Shown: one piece after another, positions 744 to 42,215 of the stretch | Layout of the letters: the number at the start of each line of letters is the position of its first letter | How positions within the stretch are numbered: the first letter of the stretch is position 1 | NCBI GenBank assembly: GCA_017440405.1 | Contig: JAFSHG010000087.1 | Span: 1 to 54,306, forward strand | DNA: 54,306 nucleotides | Direction of reading: 5' to 3' | From: Clostridia bacterium | GTDB taxonomy: Bacteria > Bacillota > Clostridia > Christensenellales > CAG-138 | The notes under the pieces: generated by a model | Databases searched by the model: none | What the model was told of the DNA's origin: nothing | Seen by the model: only the letters and a program-made list of their open reading frames with translations | Program-made: the position numbers and the translations under genes

Positions 744-3338
744 TCAAATGTCATCCATATGCAGCAGTGAGAGTATTTCATCATCACTAAGTTCTGTTAT
801 GTTGACATTATTTTCCACAACACCTGTTGCCATATCGGATTTACGCTCTATAAGCTCGTCGATTTTTTCCTCCAAAGTCCCCGTGCATATGAGTTTATGC
901 ACTATCACATTATTTGTTTGACCTATGCGAAATGCTCTGTCCGTCGCTTGATTTTCCACGGCGGGATTCCACCACCTGTCAAAGTGAATGACATGGTTTG
1001 CAGCCGTAAGATTTAAGCCCACACCGCCTGCACGAAGAGAAAGGACTATGTATGGGATGTAATTTTGGGGGTTGTTGAAACTCTCCACTATTTCTCCACG
1101 CTCGCCTATGCCGGTACTGCCGTGTATTACAAGTCCCCGTACTCCGAATAAGTCATACAGCGCATTTGCAAGCGGTTCGCACATCTCTTTGAACTGGGTG
1201 AAAACAAGCACGCGTTCTCGCCGCTCCTTTATTTCCTCGCAAAGCTCAATCAGGCGTGACATCTTTCCACTGTCTTTCACTTGGTATGTTCCCTGTCCCG
1301 TGTATTGGTCGGGATGATTGCATATCTGTTTCAGACGCAAAAGTCCCGATAGCACGAGCCCTCGTCTTTCCATGCCGTGTGAGTAGCCAATCTCTTCTGA
1401 AAGCGAGTTTACCACCTGCTTGTACAGTATAGCCTGTCTTTGGGTAAGAGTGCAATAGTTTTTCATCTCTATCTTCTCAGGTAAATCGGAAATTATGCTC
1501 TTATCCGTTTTTAGCCTGCGCAAAATAAAGGGACTTACGAATTTACGCAACTTTGATGCAGCATTGTCCATATCCGTGATACCCATGAGATAATCGGGTG
1601 TTGAATGGAAAAGCCCCGGATTCAAAAAATCAAAGATAGACCATAAATCGGTTATGGAATTTTCTATGGGCGTGCCTGTCATGGCTATCTTGAAACGGGC
1701 GTTTAAACGCTTTGCCGATTTGGATTGCAACGTCTGCGGATTTTTTATTGCCTGTGCTTCGTCCAATATAATGCAGTCCCACATAATGTTGCGGAGCTGA
1801 GTCAAGCGAGACAGCATGGCATATGTTGTTATGAAAATATCGCTGTCATCATTCTTTTCTATGCTCATGGTGCCGCAACTGTTGTGAAGCACCCGTACTT
1901 TCATAAACGGCGCAAACTTTGCAATTTCATTCTGCCAATTTTTCAGAAGCGATGCAGGTATTATCACCAAAGACCGTCCGCCCGTGAGTTGCCGTATCTG
2001 TTCTAAAACAGCGATTGCCTGAACGGTTTTGCCTAAACCCATATCGTCCGATAAACATGCGCCCAGTCCCATCTTGCGCATAAAATTAAGCCACCGCACA
2101 CCGTCTGCCTGATAGGGCCTCAGTGTGGCAGTGAAATACTCGCTCGGCTCCGATACACATGGCAGGGAGCTGTCCTCACGGTCACGCAGATTTTCTAAAA
2201 CGGCATCGTCTCCCAAATCAAACTCGGGAAGAACGTACTCCTCACCGTCGGGGAGGTTCTTGTCCGGTGAGAGCATGGCGCGCATTGCATCTGCCAGCGT
2301 GAGTTCGCTGCCGTTTTCCAGGAGCGATTCATACACAGCAAGGCATGAGTGCATTTCACTGCGATTCAGTTCTACCCATTTTCCTCGGAACATGAACAGG
2401 GTTTCATCTTTCTGCATGAGGCTTTCTATTTCCTCCGGGGTGAGCTTTTCACCGTCAATGGAAAGGTTTATATCAAAATTTAAAATGGCGTCCGTACCTA
2501 TCTGTGCAGTGCGTCTTATGGGAAGCATACCCAAAGTAAGCGTGCTGCGGCGTTTTTTCCAGTGATTGGGAATTCGGCATGTTATTCCGTACATGGAGTA
2601 CATTTCAAGCTCTTTTAAGAACGTATGCATTCCCGAAAGTGAGAGTGCATAACTGTCCAAAACAGCACCGTCATTGTATACTGCCTTCATAAGTTCGCTC
2701 TTTTTCGCAAGATTTTTTATGGCGAAAGAAACGGAATCCAATACATTTGCATTTCCGTCTGCTGAGAGTATTGCCACGGTCTCACGCAAAGGAAGCTCGC
2801 TGTTGCCGTACTTGCATGTGATGAGAAGACGGTACGGTGTGTCGGAGTTTTGAATTTCCTCAATGCTGAAAGTAACGCTCACCGCAGCCACTGTTTGTTT
2901 GTATATGTCCTCAACACACTCATGCAGCGGTTTGTTCTTCTTTGCGATTGCCCGTATAAGCCCACTGTACGTGTGCGTTATAAAAGACAGAGGCACTTTC
3001 CCCGACTTTTCAATCGAATTTGCTATTTCTTCCGTGCGCTTTTTAAGAGTGGCAGTAAGCTCCGAAATATCTTCTGATGCAGCGGCAGTGCGCAGAAAAT
3101 CGAGTGCAAAAGTGTGCAGGAAGCGCAAAGACGGGGAAGATGTGCGGAATTTTTGACTGTTTACCGCTGCCAAATATAACAGTGAATCTTCACTGTCTTT
3201 AAGATAACTGCAAAAGAATCTGTATTCGGCTGCCGACATGCGAACCCGTGAATCCCAAAGCAATATATAACCGTGTTCCGTGAATTGAACTTCCAAAGGA
3301 TATCCCACTTGTGTCTTTGCGGTTTTCCTTTTAGTCAA
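744..3338 (-). CDS. SNF2/RAD54-family helicase with a long bacterial SNF2-associated N-terminal region
   Basis: 864-aa ORF. Motif I is LSDDMGLGKTVQ and motif II is DEAQAIKN. C-terminal helicase motifs are LSLRAGGVGLNLTAANHVIHFDRWWNP and QATDRAFRIGQ. Its stop is 25 nt upstream of the PNP start on the same strand. Confidence 0.9.
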   Translation of the reverse strand: MTKRKTAKTQVGYPLEVQFTEHGYILLWDSRVRMSAAEYRFFCSYLKDSEDSLLYLAAVNSQKFRTSSPSLRFLHTFALDFLRTAAASEDISELTATLKKRTEEIANSIEKSGKVPLSFITHTYSGLIRAIAKKNKPLHECVEDIYKQTVAAVSVTFSIEEIQNSDTPYRLLITCKYGNSELPLRETVAILSADGNANVLDSVSFAIKNLAKKSELMKAVYNDGAVLDSYALSLSGMHTFLKELEMYSMYGITCRIPNHWKKRRSTLTLGMLPIRRTAQIGTDAILNFDINLSIDGEKLTPEEIESLMQKDETLFMFRGKWVELNRSEMHSCLAVYESLLENGSELTLADAMRAMLSPDKNLPDGEEYVLPEFDLGDDAVLENLRDREDSSLPCVSEPSEYFTATLRPYQADGVRWLNFMRKMGLGACLSDDMGLGKTVQAIAVLEQIRQLTGGRSLVIIPASLLKNWQNEIAKFAPFMKVRVLHNSCGTMSIEKNDDSDIFITTYAMLSRLTQLRNIMWDCIILDEAQAIKNPQTLQSKSAKRLNARFKIAMTGTPIENSITDLWSIFDFLNPGLFHSTPDYLMGITDMDNAASKLRKFVSPFILRRLKTDKSIISDLPEKIEMKNYCTLTQRQAILYKQVVNSLSEEIGYSHGMERRGLVLSGLLRLKQICNHPDQYTGQGTYQVKDSGKMSRLIELCEEIKERRERVLVFTQFKEMCEPLANALYDLFGVRGLVIHGSTGIGERGEIVESFNNPQNYIPYIVLSLRAGGVGLNLTAANHVIHFDRWWNPAVENQATDRAFRIGQTNNVIVHKLICTGTLEEKIDELIERKSDMATGVVENNVNITELSDDEILSLLHMDDI

Positions 3339-5072: not shown

Positions 5073-5432
5073 CATGAGCTGCGAGAGAAAATATGCGGTT
5101 TTTTAGTCAACACCGAGAGCACATACGGATATACCGTGACATGTTGCAAGGACAGCAAACGGGCAGGGCAGATATGTGCGGCAATGAAAGTGGGGTACGT
5201 TTGACTACCCTACAAAACTACACTACTCTCAAACCACTTTTCGCATTTCTAAAGAATCACGGCTGTTTGACTACCCTACAAAACTACACTACTCTCAAAC
5301 TGAACAGTAAAACGTAACCGCCACAATGCCGTTTGACTACCCTACAAAACTACACTACTCTCAAACGCATTTATCCTTGCCGCCGTGTTTGCCTGTGTTT
5401 GACTACCCTACAAAACTACACTACTCTCAAAC

Positions 5433-5645
5433 GTCAATAAAGGGATGGTTCTTTATTAAAAGAAAAGCTAACCTTGCGGCTTTCTCTTCGATTGAGGGGT
5501 AGAAGTCAACTCCGCCAAAGGATTGAAATGGGGATACAAGGCAGGAATCCAATGCGCCTTCATCTCGCACTCCGTCAAGACCACCTGTTTCTGTAATCAA
5601 CATACTGTGAAGTCTTTTGACCTGTGTTTTGCTAAGTTCTTCTAC
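5433..5645 (-). pseudogene. doc: Doc/Fic (death-on-curing) toxin gene fragment, 3'-truncated inside the HPFxDGNKR motif by a CRISPR repeat
   Basis: My translation reads ..EELSKTQVKRLHSMLITETGGLDGVRDEGALDSCLVSPFQSFGGVDFYPSIEEKAARLAFLLIKNHPFID. The next codons, GTT TGA, are repeat sequence. The remaining ORF from the ATG at 5603 is 58 aa, below the ORF-track cutoff. No canonical start codon lies upstream of the conserved N-terminus. Confidence 0.85.
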
Positions 5646-5647
5646 TA

Positions 5648-6070
5648 TTATTCCTCCAATCCTGCGAGAATCTCATATGCTTTATGATACTTCGCAAACA
5701 TTCTTTTAGATGCCCTTTCCACCTCTGCGTCTGTTGCATATCTTCTCTCGCCCTGAACGGACTCGTTGCGAATGCGTGAACTCGCCGGCTTCTTGATGAA
5801 TGATAAAACGAGTTTCCAAAAATCCTTCCAATCCATATCGTCAGTGCCACACAAAACAAAAGTGCCATCATCGCTTAACCATGTTTCAGAAGAGTGGTAT
5901 TTGCGAGCCGCTTCGGTGATTATGTAATCAACCTCTTCTTTGATGTCAGCCGTAGTCCACCAATATGTCTTTTTCATCTCTTCAAATGTTTCAAAGCCTT
6001 CCTTTTTCATAGTCTGCAAGAAGTCTTTTGCAACGATTTTTGCAAGCTCTTCTATTGTCAACTTTTTCAT
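5648..6070 (-). CDS. hypothetical protein in the antitoxin position upstream of and overlapping the doc fragment; putative orphan antitoxin
   Basis: 140-aa ORF with AAGGAG 10 nt upstream of the ATG at 6070. Its stop overlaps the doc reading frame, a typical toxin-antitoxin layout. The C-terminal tail ..ATDAEVERASKRMFAKYHKAYEILAGLEE resembles antitoxin C-termini. I recognise no family for the N-terminal ~95 aa. Confidence 0.5.
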   Translation of the reverse strand: MKKLTIEELAKIVAKDFLQTMKKEGFETFEEMKKTYWWTTADIKEEVDYIITEAARKYHSSETWLSDDGTFVLCGTDDMDWKDFWKLVLSFIKKPASSRIRNESVQGERRYATDAEVERASKRMFAKYHKAYEILAGLEE

Positions 6071-6429
6071 AAATTGAATACTCCTTTATTCTTGATAGGT
6101 TTGACTACCCTACAAAACTACACTACTCTCAAACTATTGATATCTACATGCGTATAGAGGTCGAGGTTTGACTACCCTACAAAACTACACTACTCTCAAA
6201 CTACAATCTTATAGACAACATCTGCATCAGTGTTTTACTACCCTACAAAACTACACTACTCTCAAACTAGGCTGTTGAGTGTCCGCCACTCGTCAGAGTT
6301 TTACTACCCTACAAAACTACACTACTCTCAAACTTTTCCTTGCCCTTGCAGGTCGTGGCTTCGGTTTGACTACCCTACAAAACTACACTACTCTCAAACA
6401 TTTGTCAAGAGGGGTAGCCAATATTTTTG

Positions 6430-6547
6430 GTTTGACTACCCTACAAAACTACACTACAAGTTCAAATAAAAGTAATCTCAAATCGTTCGGTTATTCCGTC
6501 CATGCACAGCGGTGCAAAGAAAATGCGTCTGTTTCAGGCGTTTTTTT
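6430..6547 (+). ncRNA. tracrRNA: tracrRNA (anti-repeat, nexus-like region, two 3' hairpins, U-tract); 5' end undetermined
   Basis: Positions 6430-6457 are identical to repeat positions 1-28. The sequence then diverges to AAGTTCAAATAAAAGTAATC.., compared with S. pyogenes ..UAGCAAGUUAAAAUAAGGCUAGUCC. The predicted lower stem pairs crRNA GUUUGA with tracr UCAAAU, separated by a bulge. Hairpins are TGCAC/GTGCA at 6503-6516 and 6526-6540, followed by T7 at 6541-6547. Confidence 0.8.
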
Positions 6548-6826
6548 GTTATATAGCCCATAGACGGACAGAATGTAATGTGATATCAAAAGCCCCCTTG
6601 TATTTTTATCGCTCGTGATACCCCCGAAAGATACGGAGCATTTTTTTGCTGCATATGCTCTCTAAGTTATATTATACTTTCCGGGGAAACAAATGTCAAT
6701 TATTGTAAAATGAAGCAGACGTCAATGTAACAGCACACTCTCTGATGTAAAAAAAACTATGTATCATGAAGGTTTTGAATATTTTTACGGTACGGCGGGC
6801 AATGAAATCTTATGACATTCATACGC

Positions 6827-6855
6827 TTGAAACCGAAAGGTGAAAGTGCTATAAT
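6827..6855 (+). promoter_or_regulatory. sigma-A promoter of the hypothetical-radA operon (TTGAAA-17-TATAAT)
   Basis: -35 TTGAAA at 6827..6832, a 17-nt spacer, and -10 TATAAT at 6850..6855, 30 nt upstream of the ATG at 6885. Confidence 0.6.
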
Positions 6856-6884
6856 TAGCGTATTCAAAGGAATCGGAGGATGTT

Positions 6885-8105
6885 ATGCCATCTGAATATT
6901 ATAACAGCCCCGGGCGTTACAAGCCGGGAAGAAAAAAACGCGGTACTTATAAGCCCAGAGGAAAGAGGGGATTGCCTGTTTTCGTGCGGGTTATTTTAGG
7001 CATTGCTGTGGTAGGACTGCTTACGCTCGGCGTTTTATTTGTTATCCCGGGAGTGGGCGGCGGCAGTTTTTCGCTCTTTCAAGCAAAGGACGACACACCT
7101 GTTGCGACACCAACGCCTGCACCCACCGCACATCCCATAGAAAACGCCAACACAGACAGCTTGATTCGTGATATCGCTATCACGGATACCAACTTCCAAT
7201 GGTTTGCGGACATGAACGTGTACGGCGATACGCTCATGTTCTGCGGTGGCGAGATTGTGGACGGCGATGCGTACATGACGGGCCTTTTCTCGGTTTCAAC
7301 GGATGAAAATGCTCCGAGGACGGCAAAGCGCACGAATATAATTTTGGAAAACGACCATATAATGTATCCGTGTTTTAACGATAACTGGCTGGTGTATCTG
7401 GACGCAAAAGCTTCAAGCGGCGGCAAGATAATGTGCAGTCCGTATTCGGGAGAATCTTCGGAGGCATTTTTAGTAAAAGAAGTGTATACGGGACATCCTG
7501 CACTGTTCCTCTCGGGGAATTTTTTGGCGTGGACGGAGCGCACGGGTACGAGCATGGATAAGTTGTATATTTACGACCTCACAACCAGGGAGAGTGCAAC
7601 TGTTCAGATGTTTAATAAAACCACATATTACGGCGTGAGTAAGCCTCACCTTTCGGGGAAACAGTTGGTATGGGCAGACGTGGACACGGAAAATTCCACG
7701 GGCAGCATGACGAGTCAGATTTGTATAATGAATACGGAATCGGGCGAGTTTTTATCATATAAGCCCGGTACATATGCACACGACCCTAAATCAAACGGTG
7801 ATAAATACATAGCTTGGATTACGGGGAATCACGGCACGGACAGTGACCTGTACATATCGTATGATATGGGCGAGGCGGAAAAAATAGCAGAGGGTGTTGT
7901 GGACTTTTATATGGATGAAAACTATCTCGCTTACCAGAAGGATGAGATGGTGTATGTTTATATTTTTTCAACAAAAGCTCAGTACAGGGTGAGCAAGAGC
8001 GGCCAGTGTGTGCAGCTCATAGGTGCATCGGGCGGATGCGTTATGTGGTCGGATGTGTCATCCAGAATGCGTGAAGTGCCTCAGTACATCGTAATACCCG
8101 AATAA
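6885..8105 (+). CDS. membrane-anchored protein with a probable beta-propeller ectodomain (hypothetical)
   Basis: 406-aa ORF with a basic N-terminus followed by a TM helix (VILGIAVVGLLTLGVLFVIPG). Motifs recur in the ectodomain: FLAWTERTG, QLVWADVD, YIAWITGNHG, YLAYQKDE. It ends 6 nt before radA. Confidence 0.6.
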   Translation: MPSEYYNSPGRYKPGRKKRGTYKPRGKRGLPVFVRVILGIAVVGLLTLGVLFVIPGVGGGSFSLFQAKDDTPVATPTPAPTAHPIENANTDSLIRDIAITDTNFQWFADMNVYGDTLMFCGGEIVDGDAYMTGLFSVSTDENAPRTAKRTNIILENDHIMYPCFNDNWLVYLDAKASSGGKIMCSPYSGESSEAFLVKEVYTGHPALFLSGNFLAWTERTGTSMDKLYIYDLTTRESATVQMFNKTTYYGVSKPHLSGKQLVWADVDTENSTGSMTSQICIMNTESGEFLSYKPGTYAHDPKSNGDKYIAWITGNHGTDSDLYISYDMGEAEKIAEGVVDFYMDENYLAYQKDEMVYVYIFSTKAQYRVSKSGQCVQLIGASGGCVMWSDVSSRMREVPQYIVIPE

Positions 8106-41936: not shown

Positions 41937-42215
41937 AAAAAAGCAGCAAACCCAAAAGACAGAAACTGCCTGTACGGGACGACAAATAAAAACTTGCCGT
42001 GGTGCCACCCAAATTAGACACAGAATAAGTGTCTCACTCATATCCGTAACGGGGATTTACCGTCCGAGCCTACTCTTTTTATATTTCAGCACGGCTGCTC
42101 TGCGGTGTCATTCGCAAAAAATCCTTTGCAAGACAGGCTTTCAGCCACGACCTGTCATCTCTTTTGCAGGAATTTTCACTACTTTTCCGCTTCATCGCAT
42201 TTTACAAAATATCAC
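41937..42215 (-). promoter_or_regulatory. T-box riboswitch leader of hisS-aspS
   Basis: The conserved T-box sequence AATTTGGGTGGCACCACGG is on the minus strand (forward 41993..42015). An AGAGA K-turn-like element lies near the 5' end. The candidate specifier context is GAAUGACACC (forward 42105..42109). A T-run (forward A-run at 41937..41942) precedes the hisS RBS. Confidence 0.8.

Follow-up and report, generated by a model that had tools for sequence, protein, structure and literature searches.

The 54,306-nt stretch of contig JAFSHG010000087.1 analysed here (the window), from a rumen or gut Clostridia metagenome-assembled genome (MAG), contains a relic or orphan type II-A CRISPR array of the FrCas9 clade, one spacer slot of which is occupied by a 666-bp fragment of a toxin-antitoxin (TA) operon. 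The array lies between glnA on one side and a 406-amino-acid (aa) gene followed by radA on the other, and comprises ten 36-nt direct repeats across 5199-6465 with the plus-strand sequence GTTTGACTACCCTACAAAACTACACTACTCTCAAAC, of which R1-R6 and R9 are exact copies and R7 and R8 are each off by 1 nt. Its trailer side consists of four exact 36-mers, R1-R4 (5199-5234, 5265-5300, 5331-5366 and 5397-5432, minus strand), separated by three 30-nt spacers, and its leader side (6099-6429, minus strand) of R5-R9, starting at 6099, 6166, 6232, 6298 and 6364, with the spacers sp5-sp9. The ordinary spacers measure 30-31 nt, in keeping with a type II-A array, and the start-to-start step of the repeats is 66-67 nt throughout, with the sole exception of the step from R4 to R5, which is 702 nt. 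A first-pass annotation, made from the sequence alone, had proposed that the DNA between these two repeats (5433-6098, minus strand) fills exactly one spacer slot between complete repeats, and this holds: R4 (the repeat downstream of the insert on the CRISPR RNA (crRNA) strand) and R5 (6099-6134) are perfect 36-mers, and the insert is flush with both. At 666 bp it is about 22 times the length of a normal spacer, against the 30 ± 1 nt of this system, and its GC content is 41.1% versus 45.5% for the window.

The crRNA strand is the minus strand, on which the repeat reads GTTTGAGAGTAG..., in the same orientation as in the related type II-A locus L007, and presents the Cas9-type sequence GTTTGAGAGTAGTGTAG...; the insert was correctly said to code on this strand. 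From its 5′ side it carries a 28-nt untranslated part with a ribosome-binding site (RBS, AAAGGAG; 6071-6098, minus), an intact open reading frame (ORF) of 140 aa that would encode a putative Doc antitoxin (5648-6070, minus), and a truncated doc toxin gene of 72 codons ending in ...HPFID (5433-5648, minus). The Fic/Doc fragment overlaps the ORF stop, as described previously, and its Doc family membership is supported by a match of the 71-aa fragment to Pfam PF02661 (E=1.1e-11). The last toxin residues are ...KNHPFID, after which the frame enters the repeat (V, stop), in agreement with a cut inside the HPFxDGNKR motif, and the catalytic motif HxFx(D/N)GNKR is thereby incomplete, GNKR being replaced by repeat sequence. 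In addition, doc begins with ATA in the window versus ATG in the contigs L014 and L005 described below. Therefore, as both the active-site GNKR and the start codon of the window copy are missing, the toxin remnant is inactive. An ambiguity of 1 nt affects the right junction, G5432 being either the first base of the repeat or that of the next Gly codon. Neither the ATA start nor this ambiguity was contained in the first-pass annotation, nor was the nature of the locus as an orphan array with a deleted cas operon.

Both cut points of the insert are arbitrary within the operon, one lying 4 nt past the -10 box known from a relative and the other between the D and G codons of HPFIDGNKR, and therefore the insert is no functional unit or mobile element. 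ORF translations and Pfam revealed neither a transposase nor an integrase in the insert. The sole inverted repeat, AATAAAGG/CCTTTATT at 6083-6090 and 5436-5443, is 8 nt long and subterminal, 8 and 3 nt from the insert ends; one of that length is found in about 0.6% of random 666-bp fragments (p about 0.006), and it may be a coincidence, because it overlaps the RBS and the HPFID codons. It nevertheless hints at an end-specific process other than Cas1-Cas2, and, together with the microhomology at the junctions (a G at the right one and AAA one base beyond the left one), speaks for illegitimate recombination, in which a larger foreign segment within or between arrays was trimmed by deletions that reached the repeat borders by chance, or for insertion by microhomology-mediated end joining. 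We consider such an origin improbable. If breakpoints fall at random in the 66-nt repeat-spacer unit, the chance that both lie within 1 nt of a repeat edge is (3/66)^2, about 0.2%, in keeping with the earlier argument that illegitimate deletion would not be expected to yield two flush junctions; moreover, both repeats are perfect, and no residual foreign sequence is present outside the operon fragment.

The 140-aa protein has no match to a known antitoxin family in Pfam, NCBIfam or PHROGs. Its AlphaFold model (predicted local distance difference test score 88.5) predicts a compact N-terminal domain (residues 1-93), a flexible linker and a C-terminal helix (residues 114-137), an arrangement commonly found in antitoxins that wrap their C-terminus around the toxin. 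The model has no fold match in the PDB, and its single structural match is A0A8S5SGC7, an uncharacterised gut siphovirus protein. Residues 1-93 (window 5790-6070, minus) belong to an unnamed family of about 90-aa proteins with 95 representatives at E≤1e-3; this domain also occurs in up to 9 copies in the 1675-aa protein P0009. The antitoxin-then-toxin order with a TAATG overlap, a position suited to translational coupling, is found in both L014 and L005. The ORF has retained its RBS and points the same way as array transcription; that it may be expressed, or used to neutralise incoming Doc toxins, is speculation.

The insert is not confined to the window, and six other assemblies carrying it were found through the 140-aa protein, a route by which arrays lacking the insert are undetectable. 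Contigs L001, L002, L003 and L004, from four other samples, contain both junctions with 0-3 differences over 1.2-1.8 kb, encode the identical 140-aa protein and have the same array, while L013 and L014 encode a one-residue variant of the protein and keep the left junction in two further array configurations; the left junction is thus common to seven assemblies (the window and the six others) and three array configurations. In L013 (1-875), a hybrid of tracrRNA and repeat directly abuts the insert and all five leader-side spacers are gone, and in L014 (1-623) the order is sp9, repeat, new spacer, repeat and insert, the new spacer being TTTTCTTCTGTCGTTCGCCGTGACCTCAAG, which is not in the window. 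These configurations show active repeat-mediated rearrangement. When the variants are combined, the leader side has at least 6 spacers and the insert is older than at least 6 spacers; sp5-sp9 were acquired later than the insert, provided that acquisition was polarised. The array-borne copies of the insert differ mutually by only two substitutions, and the 140-aa protein is rare, with itself and two variants of 94-99% identity among 5.8 billion clustered proteins. An assembly chimera, which would have undone the earlier interpretation, is rejected, as the insert occurs in six other assemblies. Although arrays are repeat-rich and often misassembled, the chance that assembly or binning created the structure is vanishingly small, because four other samples, put together with different assemblers, show both junctions and two further ones show the left junction. 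As to the repeats themselves, R7 (6232-6267) and R8 (6298-6333) have a common G-to-T change at position 5 (GTTTTACT...), and R8 of L003 carries two substitutions and a 4-nt deletion on top of it.

The source of the fragment is illuminated by L005, a 1.3-kb contig from another sample that contains an ungapped 96% copy of the insert (639/666) within a complete operon, consisting of a perfect TTGACA-17-TATAAT promoter, the 140-aa gene, the TAATG stop/start overlap and a doc gene that continues HPFID-GNKRIATH... and matches the TIGR01550 DOC_P1 profile. L005 and the window cease to be homologous precisely at 6098/6099 and, to within 1 nt, at 5433/5432, the latter edge falling after the GAC (Asp) codon at 5433, where the following G is common to L005 and the repeat; the 36 positions past the two edges match at 8/36 and 6/36, which is the random level. 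Donor homology therefore ends within 1 nt of the edges of the slot, as is expected of a spacer, and the check at 5433 and 6098 for which the earlier proposal had asked thus favours that proposal. These limits also argue against the decay of a longer TA-containing region between two independent arrays, the other scenario by which that proposal could have failed. The last 66 nt of the insert are identical in L005. Codon changes between the window and L005 comprise 8 synonymous and 8 non-synonymous ones in the ORF and 4 and 5, respectively, in the doc fragment; they are uninformative on selection on the ORF, which sequence data cannot show.

At the left edge, the -10 box of the L005 promoter (512-545) ends 4 nt before the homology begins, so that the captured fragment starts no more than about 2 nt from the predicted transcription start and has left the promoter behind. 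This coincidence could suggest that a reverse-transcribed piece of the operon mRNA was integrated as a spacer, that is, a complementary DNA origin, which we regard as very improbable: the likeliest start is about 2 nt downstream of the edge, which begins with C; type II-A loci come without a reverse transcriptase, and neither L007 nor the window shows one; and the coincidence was noticed post hoc.

The gene upstream of the operon in L005 encodes an E2-CBASS protein (PF26395), and the known context of the cassette is thus defence-island-like, not a recognisable phage or plasmid. In L009-L012, E2-CBASS homologues reside in operons of the cyclic oligonucleotide-based antiphage signalling system (CBASS; SAVED effector, SMODS cyclase and E2), some of them lodged within a type I restriction-modification locus, where they separate hsdM from hsdS. 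The first-pass annotation had spoken of a foreign TA cassette cut and joined to the repeat ends. The arbitrary cut and the flush joins stand, while foreignness is unproven, the sole relative lying beside a CBASS gene; likewise, the search for an intact cassette suggested there did yield a complete operon, on the metagenome contig L005, but none in plasmid or phage collections, as the insert DNA has no match in PLSDB or INPHARED and the 140-aa protein none in IMG/VR.

These data also bear on an import by repeat-repeat recombination, in which a plasmid, a phage or a second array already carried the fragment between two repeats, either as a mini-array or as a prophage integrated into a repeat and since decayed. 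Repeat-mediated recombination was active in the lineage, as evidenced by the three array configurations (L013, L014 and the window) and the deletion of the cas operon, and prophages integrating into type II-A repeats are on record (bioRxiv 10.1101/2020.10.09.333658). However, neither the repeat nor the insert has a match in IMG/VR, PLSDB and INPHARED likewise contain no match to the insert, and an integrase and an att-like core are absent. L005, the only relative of the cassette, adjoins the CBASS E2 gene and is free of repeat-like sequence at either edge and of integrase and transposase genes, which argues against at least the simple version of the repeat-bearing mobile element offered earlier as an alternative, and its flanks are dissimilar to the repeat, which, like the missing integrase, speaks against a prophage or integrative element. 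Moreover, import merely shifts the question of how the flush junctions first arose. Therefore, we judge this route to have a low probability.

The array itself was rightly assigned to type II, as the relatives L007 and L021 carry type II cas genes and the window holds a tracrRNA homologue. A search with the repeat of one genome per species (GTDB) found only the type II-A locus of another species, L006/L007, in an Eubacteriales MAG, and JGI metagenomes, like IMG/VR, gave no match. L007 has the order array-leader-csn2-cas2-cas1-cas9 on one strand (Csn2 TIGR01866, Cas1 TIGR03639 and Cas2 TIGR01573 by profile) and, on the opposite strand, a trans-activating crRNA (tracrRNA) gene (6441-6585) starting 27 nt from the cas9 start codon. 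The solved Cas9 closest to that of the relative is FrCas9 (PDB 9jwk, 933 bits). The window, by contrast, has no cas genes within its 54 kb. At the leader end of its array there is a hybrid of repeat and tracrRNA (6430-6548, plus strand), homologous to the tracrRNA genes of L007 and L021, which has no Rfam model matching at the gathering score; the only Rfam match in the window is a distant T-box leader (RF00230, 135 bits; 41972-42204, minus strand). The first 28 nt of the tenth repeat (6430-6465) are repeat sequence and the remainder is tracrRNA (AAGTTCAAATAAAAG..., with the nexus CAAATCG and a terminator at 6525-6541), and its anti-repeat, on the plus strand, is complementary to the repeat.

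The origin of this hybrid can be read from L021, which encodes a 98% identical 406-aa neighbour protein and has a tracrRNA promoter and cas9 (TIGR01865) at the orthologous site. From the anti-repeat onward, L021 is collinear with window 6436-6900 (tracrRNA region 3160-3340 of L021), while its native anti-repeat reads GTTT-ACTACCC, versus the repeat's GTTTGACTACCC in the hybrid. The L021 tracrRNA gene also has a 17-nt tandem duplication, TCGTTCGGTAGTTCCGT (3262-3278), relative to the window copy. The anti-repeat and the array repeats form direct repeats of about 27 nt, between which a crossover removes everything from cas9 to the leader and therefore leaves the structure seen in the window; we infer that such a crossover deleted the tracrRNA promoter, cas9, cas1, cas2, csn2 and the leader. 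A perfect sigma-70-type promoter (TTGACA-17-TATAAT; 6671-6699, minus strand) is conserved in L021 and also present in L013. Because its counterpart in L021 lies upstream of cas9, antisense through the tracrRNA gene, it is probably the former cas operon promoter, which would now read into the array toward the antitoxin ORF.

Based on the observed anatomy of the array, the precision of its junctions, the limits of donor homology, the recurrence in several assemblies and the cas9-bearing relative, we tentatively favour the explanation that Cas1-Cas2 integrated an over-long fragment into a repeat, as one of the two possibilities in the first-pass annotation; from these observations we infer the integrase step, the order of events and the possible expression as follows. 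First, while the system was active, a 666-bp double-stranded antitoxin-doc fragment, drawn from a defence-island-like source, would have been joined to both borders of the then leader-proximal repeat, and gap repair would have duplicated the repeat, placing the fragment flush with full repeats on both sides. Cas1-Cas2 attacks the two borders of a repeat in a staggered manner, after which the gaps are repaired, and to our knowledge this is the only chemistry that gives a 36-bp flanking duplication. The duplicated repeat around the insert is a signature of attack at both borders and therefore fits Cas1-Cas2. Each end of the fragment may have been joined in its own uncoupled, one-ended reaction, and not both within a single ruler-limited complex, as the S. 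pyogenes Cas1-Cas2 makes mostly uncoupled one-ended insertions in vitro (PMC8390005), which, completed by repair, would be a possible route for joining the ends of a long fragment without the ruler.

Second, the insert would have been tolerated by the array. In S. pyogenes type II maturation, the mature crRNA retains the last ~20 nt of the spacer and the following repeat. If the array was processed in this way, the insert unit would still have given a normal guide against doc, namely the last 20 nt of the insert (AGAACCATCCCTTTATTGAC, identical in L005), and the neighbouring units would have been unaffected. Thus, the array could have gone on acquiring, since a normal guide was still yielded and the neighbour units were untouched, and at least 6 further spacers would have been added after the insert. 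Third, the later recombination of anti-repeat and repeat would have deleted cas9-cas1-cas2-csn2 and the leader, freezing the array.

Several points weigh against this explanation. We know of no Cas1-Cas2 system that makes spacers of hundreds of bp, the integrase having a ruler, and a literature search for over-long spacers, for arrays that contain genes and for long prespacers, which covered sources other than subscription journals, found no precedent. The event is single, and other rare pathways are possible. Alleles in which the slot is empty or holds a normal spacer were not encountered among contigs that were, however, recovered via the insert's own protein; L022 and L023, whose neighbour protein is 60% identical, contain no CRISPR and are uninformative on the empty state, because synteny is lost there. 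No protospacer was found for seven of the eight ordinary window spacers: all 34 spacers of the window, L006 and L007 gave only a chance 23-nt match in INPHARED, and six window spacers searched against IMG/VR and one against JGI gave none. Finally, the protospacer-adjacent motif (PAM) lends no support: that of FrCas9 is NRTA (PMC12926199), from which the donor flank in L005, GGCA, is one base off, although at a synonymous Gly wobble position and in a relative only 96% identical to the insert, so that the mismatch does not count as a negative result.

The flush junctions and the donor limits fit the claimed Cas1-Cas2 chemistry, but do not single it out, as the same junctions are given by the recombination of two spacers, a route absent from the first-pass annotation. 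Here, a single operon would have supplied two adjacent, equally oriented 30-nt spacers, corresponding to the first 30 nt and the last 30 nt of the insert, which would have recombined with their target, 606 bp replacing the intervening repeat; the adaptation machinery would still have set the boundaries, but without integrating anything over-long. This accounts for the flush junctions and the orientation observed, as well as for the arbitrary end positions in the operon. Type II-A systems sample DNA near the Cas9 cut, and for this reason two neighbouring spacers from one operon are plausible. Recombination between spacers and protospacers has reportedly been seen between arrays and phages in staphylococci. 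However, a double crossover on two 30-bp arms is required together with a target escaping Cas9 cleavage, a precursor strain with the two spacers was not found, and the flanks, GAAA after the first 30 nt and GGCA after the last 30 nt (in L005), do not fit the NRTA of the nearest characterised Cas9. That PAM is not transferable to the present lineage, because the Cas9 proteins of the relatives share an identity of only about 41%, and the data, which include no protospacer-derived PAM of the lineage, do not separate over-long integration from two-spacer recombination. On balance, we consider the recombination of two spacers unlikely, albeit the main rival. As for a further step, in which the integrase placed a gene-sized spacer, the array kept working, and the captured antitoxin, under the former cas promoter, could neutralise incoming Doc as an anti-addiction measure, we see it as a doubtful extension.

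Compared with canonical type II-A acquisition in S. pyogenes and S. thermophilus, the locus shares the joining at both repeat borders, the duplicated repeat and the lack of need for donor homology, and its array, its tracrRNA and the cas9-cas1-cas2-csn2 of its relatives are of that type; it differs in that the insert is 666 bp instead of 30 ± 1 and holds a complete gene, and no PAM could be recognised beside the donor site (GGCA in L005). The FrCas9 single-guide RNA presumably has the same GTTTGAGAGTAGTGTA... / ...ACTACAAGTTCAAATAAA repeat-tracrRNA architecture as this locus, and FrCas9 of Faecalibaculum rodentium is the solved Cas9 nearest to the relative's, whereas the window has lost cas9. 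The prophage found in the type II-A repeats of S. pyogenes is likewise foreign DNA bounded by repeats within an array (bioRxiv 10.1101/2020.10.09.333658), but it is a whole prophage with an integrase and a repeat-mimicking attP, in contrast to the present 666-bp operon fragment without an integrase. Insertion sequence (IS) elements and transposons in arrays also interrupt the regular spacing; here, however, a transposase is absent, the outermost bases of the insert form no inverted repeat, and each junction falls on a repeat border, not inside a repeat or spacer. CreTA and other CRISPR-linked TA modules also embed TA material in a CRISPR locus, but CreTA is an effector-regulated small-RNA pair that guards cas genes (PMC10097628), while the insert is a fragment of a protein TA operon with a dead toxin. 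A CreTA-like guarding function is rejected because the toxin is truncated; being dead, it cannot addict the cell to the locus. The cassette resembles Phd-Doc of phage P1 in the antitoxin-toxin order, the stop/start overlap (TAATG in L005 and L014), the Doc-family toxin (TIGR01550, PF02661) and the predicted C-terminal antitoxin helix after a flexible linker, and differs in an antitoxin N-terminal domain that is not Phd/YefM, AbrB or RHH. Like other orphan arrays, such as CRISPR2 of E. faecalis (PMC5491264), the array has no adjacent cas genes and a spacer content nearly fixed across samples, but here the deletion scar is visible as the repeat/tracrRNA hybrid and a cas9-bearing relative is at hand. 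The insert thus qualifies as a spacer by its position and its donor homology, not by its length, and classes neither with IS elements and prophages nor with CreTA modules.

In conclusion, the anatomy of this unusual insert is striking and firmly supported, yet nature has supplied just one such case, in a dead locus, and its mechanism is unproven. Should it be a mere rare accident, it would be a caution for array-calling software, which would split the array in two. The locus is also a clean natural example of the death of a type II system, and the recombination of anti-repeat and repeat an uncomplicated way in which orphan type II arrays can arise. The Cas1-Cas2 ruler is regarded as fixing spacer length. 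Under the doubtful extension above, this ruler could fail in vivo with a productive outcome, and whole genes could be captured and expressed by arrays. If the favoured explanation or the recombination of the array with its target is true, the insert would be a first indication that gene-sized DNA can enter an array, through the CRISPR integrase or through array-target recombination, which would bear on the evolution of arrays, on how genes become embedded in them, and on Cas1-Cas2 as a programmable integrase or molecular recorder.

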